From a phage, in the NCBI GenBank assembly GCA_024614665.1, contig GCA_024614665.1_4861.1: 64,000 nucleotides of DNA; one strand, written 5' to 3'. The translations under genes were made by a program, and so were the position numbers. Below are positions 16,564-63,605 of this stretch, one piece after another (the first letter of the stretch is position 1; every line of letters begins with the position of its first letter). The notes under the pieces were generated by a model. It did no database searches. It was not told the DNA's origin and saw nothing but the letters and a program-made list of their open reading frames with translations.

Positions 16564-16592
16564 TTTTAAGCTCCTGAATTGGAAGAAACATT

Positions 16593-19500
16593 ATGGCAAA
16601 AAGAGGCAAAGACGGTTTCGATGATATCGACTTAGATAGACTCGATGACTGGGATGATTTCGGTGAACCACCCCGTCCCAAAGACGAGAAAAAACGAAGC
16701 CCGATACTTAGTACCCTGAATGTTGCCAGGAAGTCGGCGTTGTCAACTATCTGGCCAGAAGGGAAACGCGACCAAGTTATCCTCAAGGGGATGCCTAAGC
16801 CGGCAGCTGATGCATACGAGGGCTATCAGTCAGCGGCAGCTGCAGCAAAGGATATTTACGCCCATACGAAAGGGGAGCTTGAGAAGACCGAGCGCACGCT
16901 GAAGATGCAAGCGCGCCAACTCGGTCCGACGATGAAGAAATACTTGCCTGATGCGGTTACTAAGCGCATCGACAAGTGGTCAAAATCTGACCAGTTGGAT
17001 TACCAAAATTACGATCCTAATCAGGCGTTGATGGATCGTGAACTGGGCGACGTTTTCTCAGGTGTGCCAAAGGACGCCGAAGAACAACGTCAGCTGCAGG
17101 ACAGCATGGTAGAGGATAAGCTCCGCGACAGCATCAAAGAGATGCGTGCGGATGCAATGCACCAAACCATGATTGGGATGGCGAAAGACATTAACCTGCT
17201 AACCGGGTTAAGCCGCGGGGTATTCTTAAACATCGAGCGTAAGAAACTCGAACTGCAATACCGTACCCTGTTTGCCATCCAAGACATCGTGAAGATGAAG
17301 CAGTCGGAGTTCGATCGTAATACGCCTGCTTTAGAAGCCATCGTGAAGAACACGGCATTGCCGGATTACGCGAAGGAAGATTTCTCAGAAGTCCGTTGGG
17401 CGAACGTTAAACGCCAGGCTGCGGAATGGATGAACCCGTTGCGGTATGCTGACGGGTTTATGGACATGATTCGCGAAAATACCAAGAAGAAAATTTCTGG
17501 TATATTTGGCGAAGGTCGCGGTTTGTTAGAATCTGTTCTCGGCATGGGCGTTGAAGATGATTTCGGCATGAGCGACAGCTCTTCGTTGACTGCTGAACGT
17601 CGCAAAACAAATGCTCGCGATAAAGCAACTGCATGGGGTAGCGGATTCCTTGCGAAGAAACTACTCGGTCCACAAATCGAGAAACTCCAGAAATGGACTC
17701 GCGAGGAGATGGAGAAAAATCCAGAGGTCATGAAACGCCTGCAGAAGGGCGCGTTCACCTTTGGTAATCTTTCCTCCATCTCGAACTCAGCCATCGCAGG
17801 CGAAACGCAAGGACCGTTGGCGGATTTGTTCCGGGTGCTGAATGAACTCGGTATTGTCCAACCGTTAAACCGTGAGAAAGCCTTCCTTGACGAACGTAAT
17901 GGCGAAACGTTAAGCCGTTCGGCGAAATTTGACCGTAAAGCATATCTTAGCCTGGTTGAAGTTATTCCTGCCTGGCTGGCAGAGATTAACAAATCTGTTC
18001 GTCGGGGTTATGGCGAACATGCCGACCTGGAATACGACATCACTAGTCGTGGGTTCGTAGACCGTAAAGTGGTCGGTAACCGCGTACGCAAGGCGGTTGC
18101 AAACGATGAACAACGCCTGCGTCTCCAAAATTCCATTAACAGCACTGTGGATTTTGTTGACCGCGGCAAAACGCTCTCGCAGAAGGATCGACAGCATCTC
18201 GCCGACTATATCGAGTCGCGAGCCTCGCAGGGCCGCGCATTCGACGTAGAAGCGATTCTGAAAGACCCGATGCATCTTCATCGGTATATGCCAGGAAACT
18301 CCGCAGAACGCATTAAGGAAGCCTTACAGGGGCATTCTGATAGCCTAACCGGTGGTAGTAACGAATTAAGTAACGAACTGGCTCGTAAAATCTCCACAGT
18401 ACAATCGTCTATCACCCAGCGTCAGGCAGTTATTGACGAAGCGGTGAACATTTACGGCGAACGTGCGCTGCGTGATGCAGGTATATTCAACTACGACGCA
18501 AAGAGTGACACCTTCGGCGTAGATAAAGACCTCTCCGATCCCTACACCTTGTTTAATGACTTGGCGATGGGTAAGACACGCAGTGGTCGTGCACTGACTC
18601 GTGACCAGGAGATTCAACGTAAACTGCAAAACGGTTCAGCGTTAGGCGACTACTTGCGCCGGATGAACCAAGGGGCAAATGGTGGTGTCGATGACACGTC
18701 GTTGCCGCCGGCTTTACGTGGCGGTGGTAAAGGCCGCGGAATGTCGCCTCGGCAGTTAGCCGCAGTTCTCTACGGTGAAACCTCGACTAACTTTGTTGAA
18801 TTGTTGAGTCAACGTAACCGCGGCGAAGAAGCACCACGGAATAACTTTGACGGCATCATCGAAGCGATTCGGGGTAATAACAACAGTGACACCCTCCAGA
18901 AAATTCTGGAACACGTCAGAAGTATGGACGAAGAAGGGGTTCTCCTGGCTTCGTTAGCAGGGGGTGCTGGTTCTGGTGACGAAGAGATGGGACCACCTCG
19001 TCCTGGTGGTGGTAGCGGTGGCGGTAAACGCCGCCGTATTATCATCGGTGAGGATGGGCTTATTCGTCGTTGGGGCGGTGTGTTGTTCGACACTGCAGCA
19101 GGAATCGGTGGCTTTGCAAAACGTGGTGTTAAAGGTGCCTGGAATAAACTGAATCAGTTCGGTGGCTGGGCACGCGGTAAAATCGCAGGGATGGGCGGCG
19201 GAGAAGGTCCTGGTTTCTTAACCCGGATGCGTGGCCTTATCAGCGGTAGTGTCCGTGGGGGCTTTGAAGCGGTAAGTTCCTTCGGTAAAGGACTACTGGG
19301 TATCCGCGACATTTACGATGACCACGGTAATGTTGTTCTGCAAGGTGCACGTCTGGAAGCTGGAGAATACTACCAGGTCATTGATGGTAAAATGGTTCAG
19401 CTGAAAACGCTGGACGACATCAAACTGGGGAGTGATATTGTTGACTCCGCAGGTAATCTGGTATTAGCAGCCGCTGACTTAGCCGCTGCGGGTAAACTCC

Positions 19501-22500
19501 GCTACTATAAAGGCGGGAAAATCCAAGCACTGACCCAAGGTCTGGCCAGTAAGATTGGCTTAGGCTTTAATAAAGTGGCTAAGCTACCGAAACGGTTCCT
19601 GGATTTCCTGTCGCCAAAAGCGGGCAGCATCGTTGGTAAGATTAAGGACTGGCTGAACGAGATTCCGGAAGGCGAAGAAAAGACACGTCTCCAGAAAGCG
19701 TTCAACCGCGTAACGAGCTTACCGGGTAAAGTGCTCGGTTTTGCGAAACGTGGTGTCGACCGTCTGAAAGACATGATTACCGACAACCCACTGACGCGTT
19801 GGTGGAAAGGCCGTAAAGATGGTGGGGGAGGTGGTTTCAGTCTCTTCTCATCGACCGGCAAGAAAACCAACCACATTCTTATCCGTATCTACAAACTGTT
19901 GAACCAACGTTTACCGGGTGATCCGGAAGACGAAAGTTGGACAGAAGAAATGGAGAAGGGTGTCGGTGGCGGTGGTAGTACGATCGGCCGTGCAGTTCGC
20001 GGGGCGTATAATCGTGCGAAAGCGTCATTGTCTGAACGTTTTGGTGGACGTTGGTCAAGAACAAAAGCGTTCTTTGGTCGTGGACGTGACCGCCTGCGTG
20101 GTTGGTTCAGTGGTTTCCGAGGCCGGGCTGGGGATATGCTCGATGGATATCGTGGAGCACGACACGACATTGCTACACGTTACGAAGTTGAACGTCGGTT
20201 GGCTGGACGTGATGATGATGTTGCTGAGTTTTATCGCAGTCATTTGAACGCGAAAGGTGGCCTTTCTGGCCGTAAAGTCTACGGTGATGCGAAGGAAGAC
20301 CTTGAGACCGCCCGTGATGCAGCAGGGAGAGTTATTAACAAAGGGAAGAATGCTGCCAAGTCTGCAGGTGCAAGATTGTTTGAACGCTTGGACCGAATGA
20401 TTGGCTTGCAAGAGATGTCGTGGTTTAACACCATGCGCGAATCAGTATCCCGTGCAGGTGGTGACGATGGCATTATTCGTACCATGTTTGCGAAGTTCGG
20501 TAAACGTAACAAGCCGCCTGAAGGTGATGAAAAACGCGACTACTTTAACTTCTTCAAACGTTGGCGTGAGAAACGTAAGGAGAAGAAAGAGAAAGCGCAG
20601 GGCTCCAAAGGGAAATCTGGCGGTCTGTGGGATATGGTGAAAGGCTTACCTATCATCGGTCCCATCGTCAGTATCTTGGGAACTGTGGGTAATATACTCG
20701 GTTCTATCACGAAATGGGGTGTGTTAAAACCCGTAGGCCTTTTAGGGAAGGCTGCGTGGAATGTTGGTAAGTTCGCAGTAACCCGCTTGGCGGCACCCGC
20801 GGTGTCCGCTGTGGCAACTGCGGCATCTGCCGTCGTGACCGCGGTGGGTTGGCCGGCAATTCTCATCGGTGGTGCGATCGCCGCGGCAGGTTACGCCGCG
20901 TACAAAATCGCAACGACTACCTATACCCAGTACCTGGATAAGATGCGTTTAGCTCAGTACGGTTTCCGTGATTACGATAAGTGGTCGTCGGACGACGGGG
21001 CGAAAGCGCGTTACTTAGAAGACGCATTGCGTGAGTATGTGTCTTACGCGGAAGATGGCCAAGCCAGTCTCCGTGGGCTAAGTGGAAAAGACGTTCAGAA
21101 GTTAGCTGAAGGATTCGGTATCAACGTTGAGGAAAAAGGCGAGATGTTGGCCTTCCAAGCGTTTATGCTTCAGCGCTTCATTCCGATTTATCTCCGTTGG
21201 ATTACGGCACTGAAATCAATGCCGAACAGTATCCAGTTGGCTGACGTCGGCGATGCGAAGAAAGTATCGAAAGAGGACATGCAGACACTCTTCAACAAAA
21301 TGAAGATGACTAAGGATGCAAAAGCGTTCTCTTCGTTAACTGACCCACGCAAAGTCAACCAAGGTTTCTTCTCGAAAGCTTGGGACGTTGTAACCTTTAC
21401 ACCGAAGGAGTTTTTGAGCGGTGAAGAGGTTATGGAAGTGCAGAATGAAGTCGAGCGTGCGATCAAGTTCAGAATGGACGATAAGAAAGCACGTAAGTAC
21501 GGAATGGCACCGGCCGTGGAGGGGATTAAATCCGCTGGCGTTGATGAAGCTATCAACAAACTCGGACAGCTGGATAACGAACGTAACAAAAATCTGGCGA
21601 AGGTAGAAGGTTGGGAAGACGGAACAGAGCAGGTTCAGATTCAGGTAGACTGGAATGCGGTGCTCGACCAGAAAGACATGAATGCGATGGAGTCGGTACG
21701 TTGGAAGACTTATGGTTTTACCACCATCGATAACGCCACTCGCACCATGATCACGGTATTCGAGAAGAACGTCATTAAGGACATTGACGTGAAAACCGCA
21801 AGCTACAAAGGAGATTGGAAGAAAGCAATCGCCTCGATGGTTCCAGACGCTATCGGTACACCGAAAGAAGATCGTTTGAAACGGTGGTTCTTTGACCGTT
21901 TCTTACCGGTATTCATGACGTATTTGGTTGGGGTGAAGCGTTACCTGCCAACAGCCGATCCGCTGAACTTGAAACTGACCGGCGGCTACCTGTACGAAAT
22001 CAGTCTGATGATGTCAACAGCCTACAGCTTGAAAGGCGGTATAAGACAGTCGGTGTGGGAAGTGAATATCAACCCATTAGGGGGTGAGGCTAACACGAAC
22101 CCATCGTCCATCAAAGCCGAACTGGAAACGCTGAAGCTGCTGTCAAAAGAAGCTGACCTTGCCGTGCGTAACATGATCAAAGCCATTAAAAATAATGGCA
22201 AGCGTGCACGCTGGAAGGATCGTAACAAGAACCGCAGTTCTCTGGAAGTCACCGGTGAAGATGATGAAGACTCGAACATCAGTTCGGGAGATTCTTTGTC
22301 ATCCGACGGTGCTCGCGCCTCAGGTTATATCCCAACGGGTACAAGCGGTGGCGTACCGGGTAACTTAGGCCAAGTCGTCGATGCGGTTGGTGGTGTGCGG
22401 AACTACGCTGCAATGACCACGGGTTCGTCTTCGATTAACCTGAGTGATGTGAAAGACGGTGATTATAAGTCACTGGCTGAAAAATACCCGATAGAAATGT

Positions 22501-23714
22501 TGGGTAGAAAGGGTGCGTTGAACGTTCCAAATATCAAAGCACTGATTACCGATGCAGCGAACATGATGGGCGTGCCACCTGCAGTGGCGTTAGCAATGGC
22601 TAAGGCGGAGTCTGGATTTAACTACACCGCTAAAAACCCGTATGCTTCGGCGTCTGGGTTGTTCCAGTTTGTTAACGGTACGTGGGACGGGATGATGAAG
22701 GGGTATTCGCGGAAGTTCGGTATTCCGCGTGTTAACCAGATGGACCCGTGGGCGAATGCTATATTGGGTGTACAGTTCATTCGTGACAACATCCAACAAG
22801 CACAACGTGACCTGGGTGGTAAAGCACCACCTCCAGCCGTGGCTTATTTGTATCACTTCCTGGGTGCAGGCGGCGGTAAGAAATTCCTGGAAGCATGGAA
22901 GCGTAATCCGAATATGGCGGCATCAAGTGCTCCTGGGATTACATCTGCAATACTGAGAGGGAATGCCAACGTCTTCTACAGCAACGGTCGTATACGTAGC
23001 GTAGACGGGGTTATTCAGGAACTGAACCGCCGCATGGGCGCAATTTCCGCCAACGAAGTCGCTGCCGATCCGAGTAAGACGAAGGATATGGTTGCAGGCT
23101 TGTCGCCTAATTCACCAACCAACCCGGCAGCAGCAATGGGTGCACCGGCCGCTAATGATCCGAGTCTGTCGCCAGCAGATAACCTGCCGGCAGATAATGC
23201 TAATCGTCGTGATGACGCATTGACGCAGAAAGGGGCCATGGCGGCACAAGATGCAATGGCTACCGCCGCAGGTAATGTAGGACCAGCAGCACCTACACCA
23301 ACTACAGGTGGTTCCGGAACATCCGATGCCTCAACAACAGCCGAAACCGTAGCGTCGCAAGCTGCAGCAGAAGGATTGTCTGCAACGGATGTTGCTAAAG
23401 TGAAAGCAGGCGCGGAAGCGCAGGTTAACGCAGCAGCTCGTCCAGTTGCCGCTCCAACTTCTGATGCTACAGCATCGACGCCAACGCTGAATGGTGACCC
23501 GATAGATGTTCAGCAGCTCAAGGTACTGATTCAGTCTCGCGATTACTTGAAAGAGATTCGTGATATTTTGAAATCAAATCCGAGAGCAGCAAACGACACG
23601 CGTGGTGGTAGTATCCAGCAAGCGGCAAATGTGGCTCCTCCGGGCTCAGCTGCACGCAGGCAGGAAATAACCCAACCGACACCGTCGTTAAACGTAAGTC
23701 GGAAAGCAAGCTAA
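16593..23714 (+). CDS. giant virion protein with C-terminal lytic transglycosylase (SLT) domain, tape-measure or cell-puncturing type
   Basis: 2373-aa ORF. SLT signature AKAESGFNY...SASGLFQF...GTWDG near aa 2000; hydrophobic transmembrane-like segment near aa 1350-1440; Gly/Arg-rich repeats (GFAKRGV twice); Ala/Pro/Thr-rich C-terminal region. Confidence 0.75.
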   Translation: MAKRGKDGFDDIDLDRLDDWDDFGEPPRPKDEKKRSPILSTLNVARKSALSTIWPEGKRDQVILKGMPKPAADAYEGYQSAAAAAKDIYAHTKGELEKTERTLKMQARQLGPTMKKYLPDAVTKRIDKWSKSDQLDYQNYDPNQALMDRELGDVFSGVPKDAEEQRQLQDSMVEDKLRDSIKEMRADAMHQTMIGMAKDINLLTGLSRGVFLNIERKKLELQYRTLFAIQDIVKMKQSEFDRNTPALEAIVKNTALPDYAKEDFSEVRWANVKRQAAEWMNPLRYADGFMDMIRENTKKKISGIFGEGRGLLESVLGMGVEDDFGMSDSSSLTAERRKTNARDKATAWGSGFLAKKLLGPQIEKLQKWTREEMEKNPEVMKRLQKGAFTFGNLSSISNSAIAGETQGPLADLFRVLNELGIVQPLNREKAFLDERNGETLSRSAKFDRKAYLSLVEVIPAWLAEINKSVRRGYGEHADLEYDITSRGFVDRKVVGNRVRKAVANDEQRLRLQNSINSTVDFVDRGKTLSQKDRQHLADYIESRASQGRAFDVEAILKDPMHLHRYMPGNSAERIKEALQGHSDSLTGGSNELSNELARKISTVQSSITQRQAVIDEAVNIYGERALRDAGIFNYDAKSDTFGVDKDLSDPYTLFNDLAMGKTRSGRALTRDQEIQRKLQNGSALGDYLRRMNQGANGGVDDTSLPPALRGGGKGRGMSPRQLAAVLYGETSTNFVELLSQRNRGEEAPRNNFDGIIEAIRGNNNSDTLQKILEHVRSMDEEGVLLASLAGGAGSGDEEMGPPRPGGGSGGGKRRRIIIGEDGLIRRWGGVLFDTAAGIGGFAKRGVKGAWNKLNQFGGWARGKIAGMGGGEGPGFLTRMRGLISGSVRGGFEAVSSFGKGLLGIRDIYDDHGNVVLQGARLEAGEYYQVIDGKMVQLKTLDDIKLGSDIVDSAGNLVLAAADLAAAGKLRYYKGGKIQALTQGLASKIGLGFNKVAKLPKRFLDFLSPKAGSIVGKIKDWLNEIPEGEEKTRLQKAFNRVTSLPGKVLGFAKRGVDRLKDMITDNPLTRWWKGRKDGGGGGFSLFSSTGKKTNHILIRIYKLLNQRLPGDPEDESWTEEMEKGVGGGGSTIGRAVRGAYNRAKASLSERFGGRWSRTKAFFGRGRDRLRGWFSGFRGRAGDMLDGYRGARHDIATRYEVERRLAGRDDDVAEFYRSHLNAKGGLSGRKVYGDAKEDLETARDAAGRVINKGKNAAKSAGARLFERLDRMIGLQEMSWFNTMRESVSRAGGDDGIIRTMFAKFGKRNKPPEGDEKRDYFNFFKRWREKRKEKKEKAQGSKGKSGGLWDMVKGLPIIGPIVSILGTVGNILGSITKWGVLKPVGLLGKAAWNVGKFAVTRLAAPAVSAVATAASAVVTAVGWPAILIGGAIAAAGYAAYKIATTTYTQYLDKMRLAQYGFRDYDKWSSDDGAKARYLEDALREYVSYAEDGQASLRGLSGKDVQKLAEGFGINVEEKGEMLAFQAFMLQRFIPIYLRWITALKSMPNSIQLADVGDAKKVSKEDMQTLFNKMKMTKDAKAFSSLTDPRKVNQGFFSKAWDVVTFTPKEFLSGEEVMEVQNEVERAIKFRMDDKKARKYGMAPAVEGIKSAGVDEAINKLGQLDNERNKNLAKVEGWEDGTEQVQIQVDWNAVLDQKDMNAMESVRWKTYGFTTIDNATRTMITVFEKNVIKDIDVKTASYKGDWKKAIASMVPDAIGTPKEDRLKRWFFDRFLPVFMTYLVGVKRYLPTADPLNLKLTGGYLYEISLMMSTAYSLKGGIRQSVWEVNINPLGGEANTNPSSIKAELETLKLLSKEADLAVRNMIKAIKNNGKRARWKDRNKNRSSLEVTGEDDEDSNISSGDSLSSDGARASGYIPTGTSGGVPGNLGQVVDAVGGVRNYAAMTTGSSSINLSDVKDGDYKSLAEKYPIEMLGRKGALNVPNIKALITDAANMMGVPPAVALAMAKAESGFNYTAKNPYASASGLFQFVNGTWDGMMKGYSRKFGIPRVNQMDPWANAILGVQFIRDNIQQAQRDLGGKAPPPAVAYLYHFLGAGGGKKFLEAWKRNPNMAASSAPGITSAILRGNANVFYSNGRIRSVDGVIQELNRRMGAISANEVAADPSKTKDMVAGLSPNSPTNPAAAMGAPAANDPSLSPADNLPADNANRRDDALTQKGAMAAQDAMATAAGNVGPAAPTPTTGGSGTSDASTTAETVASQAAAEGLSATDVAKVKAGAEAQVNAAARPVAAPTSDATASTPTLNGDPIDVQQLKVLIQSRDYLKEIRDILKSNPRAANDTRGGSIQQAANVAPPGSAARRQEITQPTPSLNVSRKAS

Positions 23715-28706: not shown

Positions 28707-29504
28707 TTATTTGTAGTTAACCATATACGGCGCGCCCTGCTTAGTAAAGCCAACCGTCAGCTTGCTCGCCTCTTCTTTTACCCATGCGGGTAATTCTTCA
28801 CGGAATGCCGGGTTCAGGAACCAAATCTGCTCATAGCGCCCGTCAATCTTTTCAACAACACGTTCCCAACCTTCGACGTACGTCAACGAGAACCATTTAA
28901 AACGCGCATGGCGTGCCCAGTAGTGGTATTCGATGGTTCGACCGACGTGAGTCAATACATCAATCAGAACTTGGTAGAAGCTCGGCTTTCCGATGACATG
29001 GGTATACTCGAAGATAACAGACTCTTCGCCAGGGACGAAGTTATCTTCAAAATTCTTCTCCCCTGTTAAAGGTACCATTATCGTGTCGTTGTTGATACAC
29101 AGCAACCAGTGCTTATTCGAAAATATCGGCGTGTCGCCTGAGAAACGAGCCCAGCGATAATTTTCAATCGCGACGCCAATCTGTGGCCGTAATGTATCGA
29201 CCACCTTCGCTATCGCTGCAGGGTCTATCGGCTCATAGACCAGACAAATCGCTTGCACTTGCTCTCTTTCCTGCTCAGGTTCCGCAGGTCGTGGTCGCCG
29301 CCCCAGCATCAAAATCCCACTAAGATTAGTTTCCCCAATCTCAATGATTTCTATTTCGCTAGTAGGAAGCTGCCGTTTAGCGTCCTCCATGTCGACGGCT
29401 CCTAATAACCCGTATTCGTAGTCGTCGAATTCCACCGTGTAGAATTCATCGGAGAACGCAAAGAGTTTCATCATCTTATTTCTCCATTGTTTTAAAGAGA
29501 ACAT
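28707..29504 (-). CDS. hypothetical protein
   Basis: 265-aa ORF in the array. Confidence 0.5.
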   Translation of the reverse strand: MFSLKQWRNKMMKLFAFSDEFYTVEFDDYEYGLLGAVDMEDAKRQLPTSEIEIIEIGETNLSGILMLGRRPRPAEPEQEREQVQAICLVYEPIDPAAIAKVVDTLRPQIGVAIENYRWARFSGDTPIFSNKHWLLCINNDTIMVPLTGEKNFEDNFVPGEESVIFEYTHVIGKPSFYQVLIDVLTHVGRTIEYHYWARHARFKWFSLTYVEGWERVVEKIDGRYEQIWFLNPAFREELPAWVKEEASKLTVGFTKQGAPYMVNYK

Positions 29505-37302: not shown

Positions 37303-37323
37303 GATAGATAATATCTGTCTGAG
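37303..37323 (-). promoter_or_regulatory. AT-rich promoter-like element in divergent intergenic region
   Basis: Minus-strand CTCAGACAGATATTATCTATCCGAG between divergent genes 36741-37271 and 37348-37818. Confidence 0.4.
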
Positions 37324-45840: not shown

Positions 45841-45859
45841 TAGATAATATCTATCTCAG
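45841..45859 (-). promoter_or_regulatory. AT-rich promoter-like element
   Basis: Minus-strand CTGAGATAGATATTATCTACAGG overlapping the stop of the upstream gene, about 35 nt before ATG 45807. Confidence 0.4.
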
Positions 45860-48881: not shown

Positions 48882-48918
48882 TAAAAAAGGAAATCCCTCT
48901 TACCCGAAGGTAAGAGGG
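48882..48918 (-). terminator. intrinsic terminator
   Basis: Hairpin CCCTCTTAC CTTCGG GTAAGAGGG followed on the minus strand by ATTTCCTTTTTTAC. Confidence 0.6.
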
Positions 48919-48924
48919 GAATTT

Positions 48925-49404
48925 TCATTGCACAAGGCAACTACTTCTGTGCCGTTCGTAGGCACGATTAAAAGACACTCTGTCTTCGCGATAGCCGCGA
49001 ATGAGAGACTTAATCTGTCGTGACAAATCACGACTAATGTCTTGAGGGCTACGAGAACCAGGGTCGAGATATATCCCAGTGGGTATATCATGAAGAGTGG
49101 GGCGAATAAACTCTTCACAAAGCGGTGCGGCCATCGGGGTGCGCCACCCCTTAGCTTCTGCGTAATTGTTCAACGACTTAGCGTACAGATAAACGTAATA
49201 AGCATAAGCGTTCACATCCGCAACAAACATTTTCCCTGCCAGCTTTTTCGCCTCAGGACTGTTCCCACCGACATAAACTGGTGGGTGTTCTAAAGGACGA
49301 AAAGGCCAATCTCCGGTTGAGGAGTAATCTGGGTCTACGTGACGGATGACCCCAGGGCATCCTGTCAACAATAGCACCAATATCGCCGCCAAAAATAACT
49401 TCAT
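48925..49404 (-). CDS. lipoprotein (o-spanin-like candidate)
   Basis: 159 aa; N-terminal signal with lipobox LLTGC. Confidence 0.5.
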   Translation of the reverse strand: MKLFLAAILVLLLTGCPGVIRHVDPDYSSTGDWPFRPLEHPPVYVGGNSPEAKKLAGKMFVADVNAYAYYVYLYAKSLNNYAEAKGWRTPMAAPLCEEFIRPTLHDIPTGIYLDPGSRSPQDISRDLSRQIKSLIRGYREDRVSFNRAYERHRSSCLVQ

Positions 49405-49413
49405 GTATGCTCC

Positions 49414-49923
49414 TCATGGATTATTAAGCGTACTGATAATCTCCTGTCGGAAATCATTTGCCTCCTGCGACCCTACCGGGCGAGAAGCGGCCTGGTGTTT
49501 CTTGGCAGGTGGGCTAGACGGATTTAACGGTGCCGGCGGTGTTACCGGCTTGGGTTCTACAGGCGGAACCGCGGCCCCAGTGCCTGTTCCTGTTGGAGAT
49601 TTGGTACCATCATATGGCGGTCGAGAACCCAGGCACGTGAAGAGACGATCGTACAACTTATTGTTCTCCACTTCGCCGTGATCGGACTTCTCTTTTAGCT
49701 CCTTATAGGATATCTCCAGATACTGAGTACGCGATTGAACGCTAACCAGTGTGTGGTATTGAACAATATAGGCATATGAGACAAATGCAGAGAACGCGAT
49801 CAGTGCCACTATCACTAGTGTCACTATTTTCCCGGCTCGTGTTACTTTCTCCCCCTCGCCCGGTTTAAATGCTTCCCACAGTATCTGTAAGAATGGAAGC
49901 AGTTTGAAAACTGATGCTATCAT
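49414..49923 (-). CDS. membrane protein with N-terminal TM helix and Pro-rich C-terminus (i-spanin-like candidate)
   Basis: About 169 aa from ATG 49923; TM segment IVTLVIVALIAFSAFVSYAYIV, then a charged, apparently helical stretch and a Pro/Thr-rich tail; immediately upstream of the lipoprotein gene. Confidence 0.45.
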   Translation of the reverse strand: MIASVFKLLPFLQILWEAFKPGEGEKVTRAGKIVTLVIVALIAFSAFVSYAYIVQYHTLVSVQSRTQYLEISYKELKEKSDHGEVENNKLYDRLFTCLGSRPPYDGTKSPTGTGTGAAVPPVEPKPVTPPAPLNPSSPPAKKHQAASRPVGSQEANDFRQEIISTLNNP

Positions 49924-49947
49924 GCTCACCTCGGAGAGTTTTTAATT

Positions 49948-51973: not shown

Positions 51974-52013
51974 CTACCTACTCCCTTGGGAGTAGGTAGG
52001 CTTTTATTTTTTA
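51974..52013. terminator. bidirectional intrinsic terminator
   Basis: Hairpin CTACCTACTCCC TT GGGAGTAGGTAG then GCTTTTATTTTTT; A-run upstream for the opposite strand. Confidence 0.7.
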
Positions 52014-52018
52014 TCGCA

Positions 52019-53152
52019 TTATTTACCGACGATGTCGCGGACCATTGCTTTGATTGTGGCAGCAGTACGTTTCTTTTTCGGCAGCTTGCGGATTTCCGCG
52101 TACAGTTTATCCAGGTTCAGAGTTTTCTGTACCTGAGCAACAATCTGCATTTGCTCTTCGTCGATTTTCACTTCGACGGTCTGCTCCTGCATTTTGCCCA
52201 GTTCCTGAATCACACTGGCAACCGACACCGGATAAGCTGTTGATTTTGGACGTTCGATACCGAGGGTAACAAAGATTTCGTCGTCAATAAACACATTTTC
52301 GATATCAGCCAAGTTTTCCAGAATGATTTCATCGTGGTCTTCATCTTCTGACGCATTCGGATATGGACGTTTGTAGGTGTAATCCCACACGTCATAGCCG
52401 AGTTTATCTGCGAGTTGTACGAAACCTTCCCAGGTTACTTCGCCGGGGTTGATAGTCTGACCACGGAAACCAGGGTTGGCCGTAAAGACTTTCACCCAGT
52501 CGATGTTTGCGATGCTGCGACACTCTTCCAGCGGCGCGTAACGATCTCCCACTTCGTCATTGTCAGACTCTTCAACATGCTCTGCTTCACAACGCTCGAA
52601 AGTAACTGAGTGTGGTTTACCGTCACCGAAGATAACGGAGGCAGAACGCCAGTCTTCGATAGTCCACTGGACATGAGTCAAATCAATGTAACAATGCCCA
52701 ACTTTAACACGACCTCGTGGGGCACTTACTGGTTTAATCAGTTCACCTGGTTCGAAGAAGAATTCGTCAGAATGTGCAATGGCATACCAGACACCATCAA
52801 CACCTTCAACGAGAATAGACCAGTTATACGGCGCATGGCAACTTTGGAAAGCTACGCCCAGCATACTTCCCCAACGGTCATCTGGCGAATATTTCAGCGG
52901 CGGTAGGTTATCAAACTGAAGAGTTTGAGAAGAAAGGCACAACTTATTACGCAGGTGCGGCAGCGGCAGATAAGCCTCCACATTGTTATCGAACAGCGCA
53001 TTGTAAAGATCCGGGTTGATAACACCGGTGCCAGTGACGTGTTGTGCAATCAGAGCTTCGGAATATGCACGAAAACCTTCGTAGCTAAGCACATACGCAC
53101 GGTTACGTACTACACGAGCCATATCTTCGATTACGGAAATTGGAAATTGCAT
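52019..53152 (-). CDS. hypothetical protein
   Basis: ORF; start placed at ATG 53152 (MQFPIS) with AAGGA SD. Confidence 0.5.
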   Translation of the reverse strand: MQFPISVIEDMARVVRNRAYVLSYEGFRAYSEALIAQHVTGTGVINPDLYNALFDNNVEAYLPLPHLRNKLCLSSQTLQFDNLPPLKYSPDDRWGSMLGVAFQSCHAPYNWSILVEGVDGVWYAIAHSDEFFFEPGELIKPVSAPRGRVKVGHCYIDLTHVQWTIEDWRSASVIFGDGKPHSVTFERCEAEHVEESDNDEVGDRYAPLEECRSIANIDWVKVFTANPGFRGQTINPGEVTWEGFVQLADKLGYDVWDYTYKRPYPNASEDEDHDEIILENLADIENVFIDDEIFVTLGIERPKSTAYPVSVASVIQELGKMQEQTVEVKIDEEQMQIVAQVQKTLNLDKLYAEIRKLPKKKRTAATIKAMVRDIVGK

Positions 53153-53211
53153 GTTAATAGTCCTTATAAAAGTCAATGGTATTTTCAGATGATTAGTTAC
53201 TGCTGTAAAAA

Positions 53212-53478
53212 CTAGTTACGGTCGGAATTAAAGACGTGCCAGGTACTACGCCAGCGAAAGAATCGGGTCATGAAACCACGCACGTGGTAGCCTGAGAACA
53301 ACATCCAGATCGTGAGAAAAAGCTGCGCCCATGGAGTGGTGAGTTCCATCAAATGTGCGACTATCGCACCAACTATCAACATTACCGTGGAGAATAACAA
53401 ACCATACATCATCGGAATGTTGTGGCTATAGTGTTTCTCCATCCAGTAGAGAAAATTTATTAAACGTTTCACGAACAC
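53212..53478 (-). CDS. small membrane protein (holin-like candidate)
   Basis: About 75-88 aa; two hydrophobic helices and a basic C-terminus; two genes downstream of the endolysin. Start codon uncertain. Confidence 0.4.
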   Translation of the reverse strand: MFVKRLINFLYWMEKHYSHNIPMMYGLLFSTVMLIVGAIVAHLMELTTPWAQLFLTIWMLFSGYHVRGFMTRFFRWRSTWHVFNSDRN

Positions 53479-53490
53479 ACATCCAAGAAT

Positions 53491-53524
53491 TAAATAAAAG
53501 GTGGTCAGACCCGAAGGTCTGACC
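53491..53524 (-). terminator. putative intrinsic terminator
   Basis: Hairpin GGTCAGACC TTCGG GTCTGACC with a weak T-tract (ACCTTTTATTT) on the minus strand. Confidence 0.4.
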
Positions 53525-53529
53525 GTTAA

Positions 53530-54123
53530 TTACGCATCGGCCTCAAAGAACGGCTGGTTTGGTACCACTGCGTATTCGAGCACGAACAGATGTTCTGGGG
53601 CATCTTCTGCTCGCCACAGTTTGTGACACGTTGCCAGTTTTTCCAGGATGGTCAGCCAGCTGAGTTGGCAAAACGCACGATCGCCGAAGAACAGTTTCTG
53701 CAGTGCAATTGACACATCCATATACGCCTGTTTGAAGTCGAGCCCTTTATCGTAACCTGCCGACTGTCGCCAGGTCAGCACGAAACCTGCTTCGGTTTCG
53801 TTAATTGCTGGACGTAAACCACAAATCCACATCAGTGCCAGATTAACGTTCCAGTCGAATTCGATACCTTCGTCTTCGTCATCACCAAACGCCGCGTTTA
53901 ACGCGTCGTAGAAACCGTGGTTCTCTGCGAACCATTCGCCGTACTCAACGTAGACCGGTGCTTCGACAGCCTCCCCATCGACTTCACCGATAGGGCGCTC
54001 TACATAGTTCGGGTTGGTTTGAACGTGTTCCGCACCCGCGCGAATCAGTTCGTAGACATCTTTGGCGGTGATTTGTGCGGCTGTTTTAAGACCTGGATAC
54101 CAGGGGCGTGTTACGAGTGTCAA
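53530..54123 (-). CDS. hypothetical protein
   Basis: 197-aa ORF overlapping the endolysin stop by 4 nt. Confidence 0.5.
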   Translation of the reverse strand: MTLVTRPWYPGLKTAAQITAKDVYELIRAGAEHVQTNPNYVERPIGEVDGEAVEAPVYVEYGEWFAENHGFYDALNAAFGDDEDEGIEFDWNVNLALMWICGLRPAINETEAGFVLTWRQSAGYDKGLDFKQAYMDVSIALQKLFFGDRAFCQLSWLTILEKLATCHKLWRAEDAPEHLFVLEYAVVPNQPFFEADA

Positions 54124-54842
54124 AGCAGTGCTCCTTTCATGATGGTGTTATTTGCCAGTAATGTACCGGCCGCAGGTGATATTTTGGTGTACAGCGTATC
54201 CCAGATTTTCTGAAGTTCAGCGACGCGTTGGTCGTGGTCTTCCTTCGCAAAAGCAAGCTGACGTGTTTCAGCTTTCGGTGGCGTCATTTTCGCACCGTAG
54301 AATGCTGCGTCTTTTCGGTAACTGGCCATCCAGCGTTTCCCGACCGGTGATTTCTTTTTAATCATCGCAACAGCAGCACTCTCACCGAAGCGGTAGCCTA
54401 ATGCGATTTCGGCTGTGCTCGGCTTGCGTTTGAGTTGTTTCGTCAGATGATCCTCGATGTGTTTCATGTAAACAGCAGCAAGCTGTACAGCATATTTCGG
54501 TTTATTAAGGTCTGCGTTCTTTGGGATGTTAAGTTGTTTCCCATACAGACGTATCATGGAGCGTTTAGTGCCTGTCGTCATTTGGACAACACTACTAGCA
54601 CTGCTCGATTTATTCTTACCCACGTTTTTATTAAAACGGGATTCACGGTAAATAGTGGTCGCAAGCATCCCGGCGTGTACACCTTGCTTTTGAGATGCGG
54701 AGACGATGAGAGGTTTAATCTCATTGAACTGGTCCTGGATAAGGACAAATTCTTTTTGATGTTTGTTACTGGTGGACTGGTAAGAAGCGTTGCTGTTGAA
54801 TGTGGTCACTGCTACCAGAAGAAATAAAATGGTGCGAAACAT
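54120..54842 (-). CDS. lytic transglycosylase-type endolysin with N-terminal signal peptide or SAR domain
   Basis: Start placed at ATG 54842 (MFRTILFLLVAVTTFNSNA, signal-like) with GGAG SD; SLT-type catalytic region YRESRFN ... SSASSVVQM. Confidence 0.55.
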   Translation of the reverse strand: MFRTILFLLVAVTTFNSNASYQSTSNKHQKEFVLIQDQFNEIKPLIVSASQKQGVHAGMLATTIYRESRFNKNVGKNKSSSASSVVQMTTGTKRSMIRLYGKQLNIPKNADLNKPKYAVQLAAVYMKHIEDHLTKQLKRKPSTAEIALGYRFGESAAVAMIKKKSPVGKRWMASYRKDAAFYGAKMTPPKAETRQLAFAKEDHDQRVAELQKIWDTLYTKISPAAGTLLANNTIMKGALL

Positions 54843-54861
54843 GGATGTTCTCCAAATGGAT

Positions 54862-54906
54862 TTATACTTTTCCGTTCCCAATCCGGGAAGACGGCGCGGA
54901 CGGCAT
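54862..54906 (-). CDS. possible 14-codon upstream ORF (leader peptide) before the endolysin gene
   Basis: AAGGAG then ATG CCG TCC GCG CCG TCT TCC CGG ATT GGG AAC GGA AAA GTA TAA, ending 19 nt before the endolysin ATG. Confidence 0.2.
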   Translation of the reverse strand: MPSAPSSRIGNGKV

Positions 54907-54929
54907 TGTGCTCCTTTGTAATGTGCCCT

Positions 54930-54947
54930 GATAATAATATCTATTTG
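54930..54947 (-). promoter_or_regulatory. AT-rich promoter-like element
   Basis: Minus-strand CAAATAGATATTATTATCAGGG overlapping the 3' end of the macrodomain gene, upstream of the endolysin region. Confidence 0.35.
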
Positions 54948-55441
54948 AAACTTTTTGGGATGATTTTCTCTGCTTCCCTCAGCAGGGTGTCTGGTAAATA
55001 GAATCGATAAGTCTGCTCCGTGTGCTGTAGTCGTTTCTGTAAGTGTATAAAGATTTCCAATCGCTCATGGTAACGTAACCAACCGTTAGCCATCCCTAGG
55101 GGCGGTATCGCAATCCCTCCTTCTAAGTCTTCCCCTAGTCGCGCCAGCGCATCAATGCCGGACGTGACATAGTAAATCTGCGATTTATAGCGAAAATGGG
55201 TTTTAGTAGGAAGGAGTATTACCCCTTCCTCAGGATAACAATAGACCTCACCGATAACGATTTGCTCTTTACGACATTTCTGGCGATAGTCGTTATAAAG
55301 CGATGGGAAGCGTTCTCGGCACGCCAAGGCAATGCCCCTTCCCATCGCACCAACACAGTTAACTGTAACGACCTTGAAGCGCTCAGGCGCGTTAAACAGG
55401 TCGTGGGAGATAATAGCCTCGTCGATCAGTTCGAGTGACAT
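54941..55441 (-). CDS. macrodomain protein, TARG1/DarG-like ADP-ribosyl hydrolase candidate
   Basis: 166 aa; DLFNAPERFKVVTVNCVGAMGRGIALACRERFP and IAIPPLGMANGWLRYHERL parallel human TARG1 segments [34 protein letters not shown] and LSMPRIGCGLDRLQWENV (from memory). Confidence 0.55.
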   Translation of the reverse strand: MSLELIDEAIISHDLFNAPERFKVVTVNCVGAMGRGIALACRERFPSLYNDYRQKCRKEQIVIGEVYCYPEEGVILLPTKTHFRYKSQIYYVTSGIDALARLGEDLEGGIAIPPLGMANGWLRYHERLEIFIHLQKRLQHTEQTYRFYLPDTLLREAEKIIPKSFK

Positions 55442-55640
55442 CTATTGCCATACCCCATTGTGAAATAACCGGAGACTGAAGCAGCGATTCCAGCTCAGTA
55501 AGAACTCTGGCTTTTGCTTCTTCGCGCAACTTACGGACTTCCGGATCAGGTTTGCCTGCGCCCAAATATTGGGGTTCTGTCTGCGGGGTAGGGAAACCAC
55601 AGAAAGAACTAACCATTATTCCGATGATTGTTTTTTGCAT
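55392..55640 (-). CDS. hypothetical small protein with hydrophobic N-terminus
   Basis: 82-aa ORF; overlaps the macrodomain gene start by 50 nt, so one of the two start calls may be wrong. Confidence 0.3.
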   Translation of the reverse strand: MQKTIIGIMVSSFCGFPTPQTEPQYLGAGKPDPEVRKLREEAKARVLTELESLLQSPVISQWGMAIDVTRTDRRGYYLPRPV

Positions 55641-56063
55641 TTAGCTATTCCTTTTCGCCCAGGCATGTACCGCTGACTCGAAACCTTCGTGTTCGATACC
55701 GAGCCGTTTCATTGCCAACATAGTGTTGAGGCTATTCGTAATTTCTTCACGGTAGCGATGGTCATCCATCTTACGCCAACACTTCTCCGGGTCAACGCCT
55801 AAACGCTGGAGTAGATACGCCTCACGCACCATACCAGGCCGCCAGAATTTAGGGCGGGTAATCGCGATTTCAATCATGGGCGTCATGTCCAACGTGTGGG
55901 CGAGAATACTAACCGGCGTTTCCCCAACTTTATCACGTAGCGCTAAACGTAACCACCACTGAACATTTGCTTTGGTTTCAGGTAACAGGTCGTAGAATAA
56001 GGCTGTTTCTTCTTCTGATAAATGATCGTATAGTGATTTTGTTTCGCGAATAGCGGTAACCAT
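55641..56063 (-). CDS. hypothetical protein
   Basis: 140-aa ORF. Confidence 0.5.
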   Translation of the reverse strand: MVTAIRETKSLYDHLSEEETALFYDLLPETKANVQWWLRLALRDKVGETPVSILAHTLDMTPMIEIAITRPKFWRPGMVREAYLLQRLGVDPEKCWRKMDDHRYREEITNSLNTMLAMKRLGIEHEGFESAVHAWAKRNS

Positions 56064-62725: not shown

Positions 62726-63217
62726 TTATTCTGAATAGTCGATTGTTTTGATAGTTTCCATACCGTAGTACATAGCGATGGAGGCCAGAGTTTTGGTATC
62801 CGGTCGCTGTACAAAACCGGCCCTGAAATCTTTGCTGCAAATTTTCTCCACTGATAGTTCATCACGATTAGGGATAAGCCATAACGCGTCACCGTTGTGA
62901 CGGTCGACTGCACCCCACCAACCACCTGGGCAATCTTTATCGCCCGGACGGTGTACGATAGCGACACGTCCGTTGAAGGATATGTCAACTACACGACACT
63001 GTTTCTTAAGCAGCTTACGCGCATTGCACCAGAACGGCTTATCATTAAGATTGATGGTGCGGGTATATGCTGGAATGCTGCCGTTAATACTGCCCTGGAA
63101 CCCGCTGAATTCGTCAGCGCGTGCCTTAGAAATCCGTAGCCCAACAACAAGTGCCATCAACAGCACAGTAAAAAGCACCACTTTGGCCAAGTGGCGATTA
63201 ACGTTATTGCATTTCAT
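62726..63217 (-). CDS. secreted protein (signal peptide)
   Basis: Start placed at ATG 63217 (MKCNNVNRHLAKVVLFTVLLMALVVGLRISKARA) with GGAG SD. Confidence 0.5.
   Translation of the reverse strand: MKCNNVNRHLAKVVLFTVLLMALVVGLRISKARADEFSGFQGSINGSIPAYTRTINLNDKPFWCNARKLLKKQCRVVDISFNGRVAIVHRPGDKDCPGGWWGAVDRHNGDALWLIPNRDELSVEKICSKDFRAGFVQRPDTKTLASIAMYYGMETIKTIDYSE
62733..62745 (-). promoter_or_regulatory. AATCGACTATTC element
   Basis: Minus-strand CAATCGACTATTCAGAATAA overlapping the last codons of the upstream gene, about 35 nt before ATG 62703. Confidence 0.4.
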
Positions 63218-63605
63218 TTTTAATATCTCCACGATTAAGGGTGATGCGACCGACGAGCACATCGTTGTGATAAAAACTCACAGCAACCAGATCTGGCAAT
63301 TCCAACGGCGATACACTGACCGAGGTGACTTTTGGTTGATTGCACGATATGTCGATTAATCGCTGATACATTTTCAATTTCTTATCAGCGATAACCAGCC
63401 CTGTGCAGTTCTTACCGTCCGTCAGTCTGTAGATTTGTAACTGTTCGACCTCACGCATCAGTTCCGGTTTTTCATTCGGTGCAATGGCATAATCCGAATC
63501 AGCTGATGTGTATTCAGTCACGTCTGGCTTATCGAAAGCATAAGTTGCTGCAATACCACATGCGGCCAGAACTACTACTGCTTGTAAGAACTTCTTGATA
63601 GTCAT
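63204..63605 (-). CDS. lipoprotein
   Basis: 133 aa; signal peptide with lipobox VLAACG. Confidence 0.5.
   Translation of the reverse strand: MTIKKFLQAVVVLAACGIAATYAFDKPDVTEYTSADSDYAIAPNEKPELMREVEQLQIYRLTDGKNCTGLVIADKKLKMYQRLIDISCNQPKVTSVSVSPLELPDLVAVSFYHNDVLVGRITLNRGDIKNEMQ
63227..63240 (-). promoter_or_regulatory. variant of the TTAATCGACTAT upstream element
   Basis: Minus-strand CCTTAATCGTGGAGATATTAAAA ATG. Confidence 0.3.

Follow-up and report, generated by a model that had tools for sequence, protein, structure and literature searches.

A predicted signal-peptide endolysin in a conserved two-gene operon of Seoulvirus-like jumbo phages

Does the transglycosylase gene found at positions 53212-54906 of a 64,000-nt stretch of phage DNA (GCA_024614665.1, contig GCA_024614665.1_4861.1; the whole stretch is referred to below as the window) belong to a lysis module, and how would its product reach the cell wall? 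An earlier note, made from the letters alone, had described the locus as such a module, composed of an endolysin with a Sec signal or a signal-anchor-release (SAR)-like N-terminus, a short leader open reading frame (ORF) and a holin-like membrane protein. The question is of general interest, as lysis had not been elucidated for any jumbo phage that forms a nucleus until 2026, and then for phiKZ alone, and the SPN3US/Erwinia group has no recognisable copies of the phiKZ lysis cassette. According to our analysis, the gene encodes a putative counterpart of the phiKZ endolysin that carries a predicted cleavable signal peptide, and it forms, with one downstream gene, an operon to which the membrane protein does not belong. 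The region 53000-55500 is 97-99% identical to Seoulvirus, the SPN3US-like Salmonella jumbo phages (SaP7, 98.8%; SPN3US, 97.2%), and the window corresponds to approximately 166-230 kb of SPN3US in reversed orientation. The studied genes all lie on the minus strand and correspond to SPN3US_0198 (annotated as "putative endolysin"), 0199, 0200 and 0201, here gp198 to gp201. The enzyme and its N-terminus are located as follows:

54120-54842, minus strand: gp198, lytic transglycosylase, 240 aa from the ATG at 54842; Shine-Dalgarno (SD) sequence GGAG at 54853-54850; catalytic E67 at 54644-54642.
54842-54786, minus strand: signal peptide of gp198, residues 1-19, with predicted cleavage between A19 and S20.

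By its domain, gp198 is assigned to the family 1 lytic transglycosylases, and the comparisons identify it as the likely counterpart of the phiKZ endolysin gp144. It scored 27.6 bits against the Pfam SLT domain (PF01464), above the curated cutoff of 21.3, and matched phrog_4067, "transglycosylase", with an E-value of 5.6e-57; phiKZ gp144 falls in the same PHROG. The best match among solved structures was also gp144 (3BKH, E 4e-12), with E67-S68 aligned to its "IESAF" motif, and the two sequences share 31% identity (E 1e-9). The E67-S68 pair is invariant in 8 gp198 orthologues, as are the VVQM and GYRFG motifs. In the AlphaFold2 model, the mean predicted local distance difference test (pLDDT) score was 62.6 overall and 70-95 in the core, with low values at the N- and C-termini. 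The mature part is basic and free of cysteine. gp144 is the experimentally proven endolysin of phiKZ (PMC12894885; PMC12571901), gp198 was entered as its weak homologue in the supplement of Thomas et al., and the orthologue in Moabite was annotated as an endolysin by phage-lysis specialists, who found no holin there. The literature search returned no experiments on gp198; NCBIfam gave no match, and PADLOC gave none for gp198-201. The earlier proposal of an endolysin candidate with an SLT-type catalytic motif was therefore confirmed by the Pfam, PHROG, structural and motif comparisons.

The signal peptide was called by rules, and the N-termini were compared among 8 close orthologues, 4 further genera, 6 uncultivated relatives and 4 very distant jumbo phages (RisingSun, CR5, Moabite and pAEv1810, with approximately 29-32% identity). 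The ATG at 54842, and not an upstream TTG, is the start in all gp198 orthologues. The N-terminus consists of M-F-R, the core TILFLLVAVTTF and N-S-N-A↓S-Y-Q (the arrow marks the predicted cut); in the core, 8 of 12 residues are Leu, Phe, Val or Ile, so that 12-13 strongly hydrophobic residues precede a polar c-region. Position -1 is Ala in 17/17 orthologues and position -3 is Ser, Ala, Val, Thr or Leu, a layout kept down to approximately 29% identity, while the residues of the hydrophobic core vary freely. This combination of free drift in the core with fixed -1/-3 residues suggests selection for cleavage by signal peptidase I. The segment is thus predicted to be a cleavable Sec-type signal peptide, of the signal-peptide (SP) type according to published criteria (PMC7692668), and with such an N-terminus a canonical holin would not be needed for export.

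A hydrophobic segment in front of a muralytic domain is also what a SAR endolysin would have, and gp198 could then be held at the membrane by an N-terminal helix that is not cleaved. We rejected this candidate and consider it extremely improbable, owing to the strongly hydrophobic, Leu/Phe/Val-rich core of only 12-13 residues and to the polar c-region with a conserved A-x-A cleavage site that follows it. Moreover, gp198 has neither a cysteine nor catalytic residues within the N-terminal hydrophobic segment (criteria as in PMC7692668). Consequently, of the two alternatives in the earlier note, the Sec signal starting from ATG 54842 is upheld by the orthologue starts and the conserved tripartite layout, and the SAR-like one is not; that note had itself named predicted cleavage of the N-terminus, in the absence of a step of release from the membrane, as speaking against its proposal, and this is what we found as far as the SAR point is concerned. 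The predicted Sec-type N-terminus also supports its suggestion that export would be independent of a canonical holin.

The gene downstream of gp198 and the element that closes the pair are as follows:

53530-54123, minus strand: gp199, 197 aa, acidic, cytoplasmic and conserved; begins with a TTG, in a 4-nt overlap with the transglycosylase stop, and has AAAGGAG 6 nt upstream.
53492-53524, minus strand: intrinsic terminator (hairpin at 53524-53503 plus a T-run), with a 9-bp GC-rich stem and a UUCG loop, which ends the transglycosylase-gp199 operon.

The 4-nt overlap and the AAAGGAG box suggest that gp198 and gp199 are translationally coupled, and in all genera with gp199, CR5 included, its gene comes after that of the transglycosylase. 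The model of gp199 is confident (pLDDT 87.5), and the fold search gave no informative relative. A role as a gp143-like lysis regulator was considered and rejected for lack of evidence, since the two proteins belong to different PHROGs (8114 and 2935) and no informative fold match was obtained. The closest analogues that we can offer for gp199 are Ms6 Gp1, which resembles a chaperone and helps in export, or else the Firehammervirus lysis modulator F379_024, which is encoded by an overlapping gene.

In 8/8 lineages checked, the gp199 homologue is likewise followed by a strong hairpin with a T-run, whose stem differs in sequence. Taken together with the conserved promoter motif described below, this delimits a conserved unit of promoter, leader, gp198, gp199 and terminator. 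These signals bound a two-gene operon at 53492-54944 that is complete in itself and is kept in several genera of the enterobacterial jumbo phages that form a nucleus. The operon lies between SbcC-like and RNase H genes, amid genes for replication and repair. This placement is ancient: the transglycosylase gene comes immediately after SbcC in RisingSun and in pAEv1810 as well.

The region upstream of gp198 contains three further elements:

54932-54944, minus strand: early-class promoter motif ATAGATATTATTA, overlapping the stop of the macro-domain gene that lies upstream.
54862-54928, minus strand: conserved 5' leader, comprising GGGCAC, an SD-like AAAGGAG (54917-54911), GTCCGCGCCGT (54901-54891), a hairpin (54894-54872) and then AAAAGTATAA.
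54906-54862, minus strand: 14-codon ORF, MPSAPSSRIGNGKV followed by a stop, inside the leader, with AAAGGAG 4 bases upstream.

The leader was aligned among 10 genomes from at least 6 lineages. The order of its elements is conserved: ATAGATATTAT(T/C) over the upstream stop, GGGCAC, A(A)AGGAG, the invariant GTCCGCGCCGT, the hairpin, AAA(A/T)GTATA(A/T)ATCC, the SD GGAG and the ATG. A hairpin of 8-11 bp can be formed in each of the 10 leaders on a fixed CCGU/ACGG base, and its upper stem differs between lineages and stays paired (UCCC/GGGA, UUCU/AGAA, CUC/GAG, UAUUC/GAGUA, CGAA/UUCG and UUUCG/CGGAA). These compensatory changes establish covariation of the predicted hairpin at the level of sequence. 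In every lineage, the real hairpin folds better than shuffles of the inner segment, with individual p-values of 0.01-0.13; combining them over the ten partly related leaders gave a Fisher chi-square of 61.1 with 20 degrees of freedom, and recombining seven lineages by hand gave approximately 1e-4. The overall stability of the leader is not unusual (minimum free energy z 0.59), and an Rfam scan of 52000-56000 revealed nothing relevant and no family for the leader.

The earlier note was correct in that a 14-codon ORF with a strong SD lies directly upstream of the enzyme gene; a leader-ORF role is not supported, because neither its start codon nor its peptide is conserved. In the 10-leader alignment, the ATG occurs only in Seoulvirus, and elsewhere the aligned codon is CTG or there is a TTG one codon earlier. 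Across six other lineages, the aligned frame has 4 codons in Stratton, L020, L022, L027 and Caitlin and 14 codons in pSal-04 and L026, and it runs into the main ORF in ChrisDB; an ORF of 14 codons is of chance-level size. The TCC-GCG-CCG codons are invariant, and their third positions vary no more than the first two, which suggests that the constraint acts on nucleotides. In our reading, the 14-codon ORF is a by-product of a conserved RNA/DNA leader.

One could nevertheless propose that the leader acts through translation of this frame, with ribosomes at AAGGAG melting the hairpin and thereby setting the rate of transglycosylase translation; the start would be AUG in Seoulvirus and CUG or UUG elsewhere, with the first codons, S-A-P, conserved. 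The SD-like AAGGAG kept in all lineages, the xUG codon 4-8 nt downstream of it everywhere, the invariant TCC-GCG-CCG codons and the 14-codon versions ending in N-G-K/N-V-stop in 3 lineages (the window, pSal-04 and L026) are consistent with this proposal. We consider it very unlikely, however, since CUG is a very poor start codon, the length and frame of the ORF vary by lineage, and the invariance of third codon positions points to the nucleotide level. Whatever its mode of action, the conserved leader could delay the translation of gp198. An annotated 43-aa ORF at 54800-54931 on the plus strand (SPN3US_0197 in GenBank, ACQ60_gp069 in RefSeq) is antisense to the leader and the transglycosylase start; as the conservation here tracks the leader motifs and not its frame, this ORF is probably spurious.

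The promoter motif bears on when the operon would be expressed. Its core, TAGATATTAT (with at most 1 mismatch), has approximately 13 intergenic copies in SPN3US, always 30-110 nt upstream of non-structural genes; one of these genes, at 29014 of SPN3US, encodes an RNA polymerase (RNAP) subunit that is presumably a non-virion one. In the window, 6 matches were found against 1.6 expected. All related genera, as well as Aeromonas phage pAEv1810, keep the motif ahead of the transglycosylase gene. Two more copies of the form (C/G)AGATAGATATTATCTnnnG(T/G)GA lie upstream of other non-structural genes:

45842-45854, minus strand: copy of the promoter motif.
37306-37318, minus strand: copy of the promoter motif.

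The motif is partly palindromic and therefore scores on the opposite strand too. These phages do not use the host RNAP, and a sigma-70 promoter scan (15 found against 11.3 expected) was uninformative. In RNAP-encoding jumbo phages, a repeated AT-rich motif near -10 has proved to be the early promoter of the virion RNAP wherever tested, and the middle and late promoters of such phages cannot be found by the repeated-motif approach (PMC7598289). Thus, in the Seoulvirus group, (C/G)AGATAGATATTATCTnnnG(T/G)GA probably represents the consensus of the early promoters used by the virion RNAP, and the shared motif class, together with this AT-rich precedent, suggests that the gp198-gp199 operon is transcribed early.

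Beyond the terminator lie the small membrane protein and the genes that follow it:

53212-53478, minus strand: gp200, two-helix membrane protein, 88 aa, lineage-specific, with a basic C-terminus of approximately +4.
52019-53176, minus strand: gp201, conserved protein of phrog_11818, co-oriented with gp200.
51974-51999, both strands: bidirectional terminator with a perfect 11-bp stem, between the convergent gp201 (minus) and gp202 (plus), which closes the gp200-gp201 unit.

The helices of gp200 were assigned by a hydropathy scan and by reading the sequence. The scan gave one peak over the threshold (residues approximately 20-48); by reading, two helices can be placed at approximately 22-43 and 49-65, the second by eye. 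With a five-residue ELTTP loop between them and a basic C-terminus, an N-in/C-in topology is likely. No family was found for gp200 in Pfam, PHROG, NCBIfam or PADLOC, no holin family among them; the only sub-threshold Pfam matches were DUF4231 and ExoD. Relatives occur only in Seoulvirus and, at 38-41% identity, in two nearby groups, SPAsTU/STsAS and pEa_SNUABM_29, where gp198 still shows 75-77%; a search of 1.84 billion cluster representatives yielded only 6. In other genomes (loci L010-L012, L022 and L025-L028), the same slot, flanked by the homologues of gp199 and gp201, is occupied by unrelated membrane proteins, 88-197 aa long and mostly with two transmembrane domains (TMDs), and sometimes by two such proteins. 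The slot is empty in Erskinevirus (L009; Stratton and phiEaH2-like L020), in which gp198-gp199 is kept. Such variability is compatible with the diversity of holin-like proteins and equally with a hotspot for accessory genes.

The shape of gp200 invites the reading of gp198 and gp200 as an endolysin-pinholin pair, in which gp200 would depolarise the membrane and so activate the exported enzyme. At 88 aa, with two TMDs, an N-in/C-in topology and a basic C-terminus, it resembles class II holins and pinholins; there are two in-frame GTG starts two codons apart, and the recurrence of an unrelated two-TMD protein in this slot in most genera is compatible with holin diversity. Against the pairing stand the conserved terminator between gp200 and the operon, the retention of gp198-gp199 in Erskinevirus with the slot empty, the near-orphan status of gp200 with no holin family match, its weak SD and the fact that small two-TMD proteins are common as accessory genes of phages. 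We regard such a pair as distinctly improbable. gp200 is an accessory, fast-evolving membrane protein that the conserved operon does not require, and it is holin-like in shape only. The two-helix protein with a basic C-terminus that had been noticed at 53478-53212 is therefore present, and its assignment to a lysis module fails on the terminator, the narrow spread and the lack of a holin family.

If gp200 is not the partner, other holin and spanin candidates deserve attention:

84978-85550 of SPN3US (NC_027402), outside the window: gp86, 190 aa, a cytoplasmic domain of approximately 100 residues plus two TMDs.
49929/49884-49414, minus strand: spanin-like TMD protein; by inspection, its N-terminal TMD is accompanied by a charged, helix-prone stretch and a tail rich in Pro.
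49404-48925, minus strand: spanin-like lipoprotein, 159 aa, MKLFLAAILVLLLTGC, lipobox LLTGC, SD GAGGAG, 10 nt downstream of the TMD protein.
48894-48919: bidirectional terminator after the spanin-like pair.

gp86 directly follows the orthologues of phiKZ gp139 and gp140 in a late structural operon and is kept at 40-62% identity in all genera that carry gp198-gp199. In phiKZ, the spanin-holin-regulator-endolysin cassette follows gp139/gp140 (PMC12894885), and gp86 occupies the place of gp142, the class IIIb holin of that phage. By position and shape only, gp86 is a better holin candidate than gp200. When phiKZ gp141, gp141.1, gp142 and gp143 were compared by BLASTP and phmmer with every ORF of the window and of SPN3US, no match was obtained; only gp139, gp140 and gp144 have detectable relatives there. 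By synteny, the spanin-like pair corresponds to gp156.1 and gp156 of phiKZ, a TMD protein and a LISGC lipoprotein encoded beside RNase H, and BLASTP between the two pairs detected no similarity. Its lipoprotein, at 159 aa, is long for an outer-membrane spanin, both PHROGs of the pair lack an assigned function, and phiKZ gp156.1/gp156 is not the experimentally defined spanin pair of phiKZ. We therefore call the pair spanin-like on the basis of synteny, architecture and the low-stringency gp205-ORF156 pairing in the supplementary table of Thomas et al.

SPN3US also encodes a protein with GH108 and PG_binding_3 domains (gp156, NC_027402 135425-136042, outside the window). By its predicted domains and its lack of an export signal, it has the canonical architecture of a cytoplasmic endolysin; GH108 is likewise found in Machinavirus (pSal-04 ORF158; PMC7823757) and in many Erwinia phages. 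The surrounding interval of SPN3US (NC_027402 133169-138766), beside the tail-fibre genes, contains a gp38-like adhesin, the GH108 endolysin, a DUF1353 chaperone and an M15-like "endolysin" of phrog_894. It also holds a protein of 175 aa in PHROG 2935, that of the phiKZ regulator gp143, and, on the other strand, a lipoprotein with the lipobox LLAGC. In view of the early-class motif, the replication/repair setting, the GH108 endolysin and the better-conserved holin candidate elsewhere, the term "lysis module" overstates what this locus is.

The interpretation that we favour, at somewhat better than even chances, is that gp198 is an SP-type endolysin that is exported, cleaved, held in the periplasm and unleashed by depolarisation from a holin encoded elsewhere. 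We infer its export, cleavage, timing and lytic role in the following form. The precursor would be exported by Sec and cut after Ala19, and the soluble transglycosylase would accumulate in the periplasm without any holin. Late in infection, a holin encoded elsewhere, for which gp86 is the best candidate, would collapse the membrane potential and thus lead to destruction of the wall, and the spanin-like pair at 48925-49929 would finish the outer membrane. A more elaborate version seems quite unlikely to us: the periplasm would be pre-loaded early with endolysin, the leader (SD-like box, mini-ORF and hairpin) would hold the operon in check, a separate late holin would set the timing, and gp199 would be an obligate partner and a new export or lysis regulator.

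Several observations weigh against the favoured interpretation. An early-class motif, the class being presumably early, is unexpected for a lysis gene. The upstream regions of SPN3US structural genes often carry a phiKZ-like TATG, and none of these late-promoter motifs was seen on reading the transglycosylase leader. The putative holin gp86 has two TMDs against one in phiKZ gp142, with no sequence similarity detected, and the GH108 protein could be the real endolysin in Seoulvirus and Machinavirus. In the main alternative, gp198 would be an early accessory periplasmic transglycosylase and final lysis would be carried out by GH108 (gp156) and a holin. The accessory roles might include remodelling of the wall as the cell swells around the phage nucleus, opening of gaps through which a complex could span the envelope, as with the specialised transglycosylases VirB1 and EtgA, or action on superinfecting phage. 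The early-class promoter motif, the ancient placement between SbcC-like and RNase H genes and the co-occurrence of a GH108 + PG-binding endolysin in Seoulvirus and Machinavirus would fit this alternative, as would the small signal-peptide family 1 layout of gp198, which we take to resemble that of secretion-system transglycosylases. On the other hand, the nearest characterised relative of gp198 is an endolysin, Moabite-type phages are annotated with no other endolysin, the annotated GH108 start lies directly after a terminator and lacks an SD, and the accumulation of SP-endolysins before lysis is an established mechanism. An accessory function is thus possible and, in our estimate, rather unlikely.

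Some other features of the window deserve mention. The strongest gp144-like domain (E 1e-16) lies in a giant tail protein on the plus strand at approximately 16578-23711 (SPN3US gp239, phiKZ gp181-like), with its SLT domain at approximately 22560-23040; this protein is a tail-associated (virion) lysin, distinct from gp198. The macro-domain protein just upstream of the operon (54941-55441, minus strand) matches the macro domain of the DarG antitoxin (PADLOC PDLC02990, E 4e-32) and may serve as a counter-defence against DNA ADP-ribosylation by DarT. A predicted lipoprotein of 133 aa at 63204-63605 on the minus strand, beginning with MTIKKFLQAVVVLAAC, belongs to phrog_9424 and has a weak relationship to the product of SPN3US 87265-87654, which carries a signal peptide.

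Part of this was already known: the annotation of the gene as "putative endolysin" dates from 2011, and the SP-endolysins form an established class, with one of the SLT type in a phage of Gram-negative bacteria. Our result is therefore a refinement and not a discovery. In the literature searched, we found no description of the clade-wide signal peptide, the tight gp198-gp199 operon or the covarying leader behind an early-class promoter. For SPN3US, for which an amber-mutant system exists, the predicted signal-peptide counterpart of gp144, the delimited operon, and the GH108 protein and the protein in the gp142 position provide a map for genetics. The predicted mature enzyme, residues 20-240, and not the full ORF, would be the form to express as an enzybiotic.

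Comparison with known systems places these proteins more precisely. Like the class II holins and pinholins (phage 21 S68), gp200 is small, has two TMDs in a likely N-in/C-in arrangement and ends in a basic C-terminus; unlike the pinholins, it has no homology to them and is neither co-transcribed with the enzyme nor conserved alongside it. Gene e of phage T4, which encodes a lysozyme, is reportedly transcribed early, and a leader RNA structure has been proposed to govern the timing of its translation (McPheeters et al. 1986). The conserved gp198 hairpin differs in that it does not contain the SD, and no internal late promoter was found in this case. With the SAR endolysins (P1 Lyz, phage 21 R and phiKMV gp45), gp198 would share a holin-independent, Sec-mediated export, as judged from its N-terminus. 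SAR domains, in contrast to the strongly hydrophobic core of gp198 with its conserved cleavage site, are weakly hydrophobic (Gly/Ala/Ser-rich), uncleaved and released from the membrane.

gp198 and phiKZ gp144 (3BKH/3BKV) have in common the PHROG phrog_4067 and the catalytic ES motif, and both come from the broader assemblage of jumbo phages that form a nucleus. Where gp144 carries a peptidoglycan-binding domain at its N-terminus and lacks a signal peptide, gp198 has a predicted cleavable type I signal peptide instead. gp144 needs the holin gp142 and is encoded in the contiguous late cassette gp141-144 with spanins, holin and regulator (PMC12894885), whereas gp198 lies in an early-type operon with gp199. 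There is also a likeness in architecture to the SP-endolysins F352 Lys and Oenococcus fOg44 Lys44, which, like gp198, have an N/H/C signal peptide before the catalytic domain. These SP-endolysins leave the cytoplasm by way of Sec and are activated by a holin or by depolarisation. F352 Lys of a Campylobacter Fletchervirus, an SLT enzyme with a signal peptide that is Sec-dependent and holin-activated and whose lysis genes are scattered, provides a Gram-negative precedent (PMC7692668). What sets the gp198 operon apart from both is its early-type promoter, its structured leader and its coupled cytoplasmic partner.

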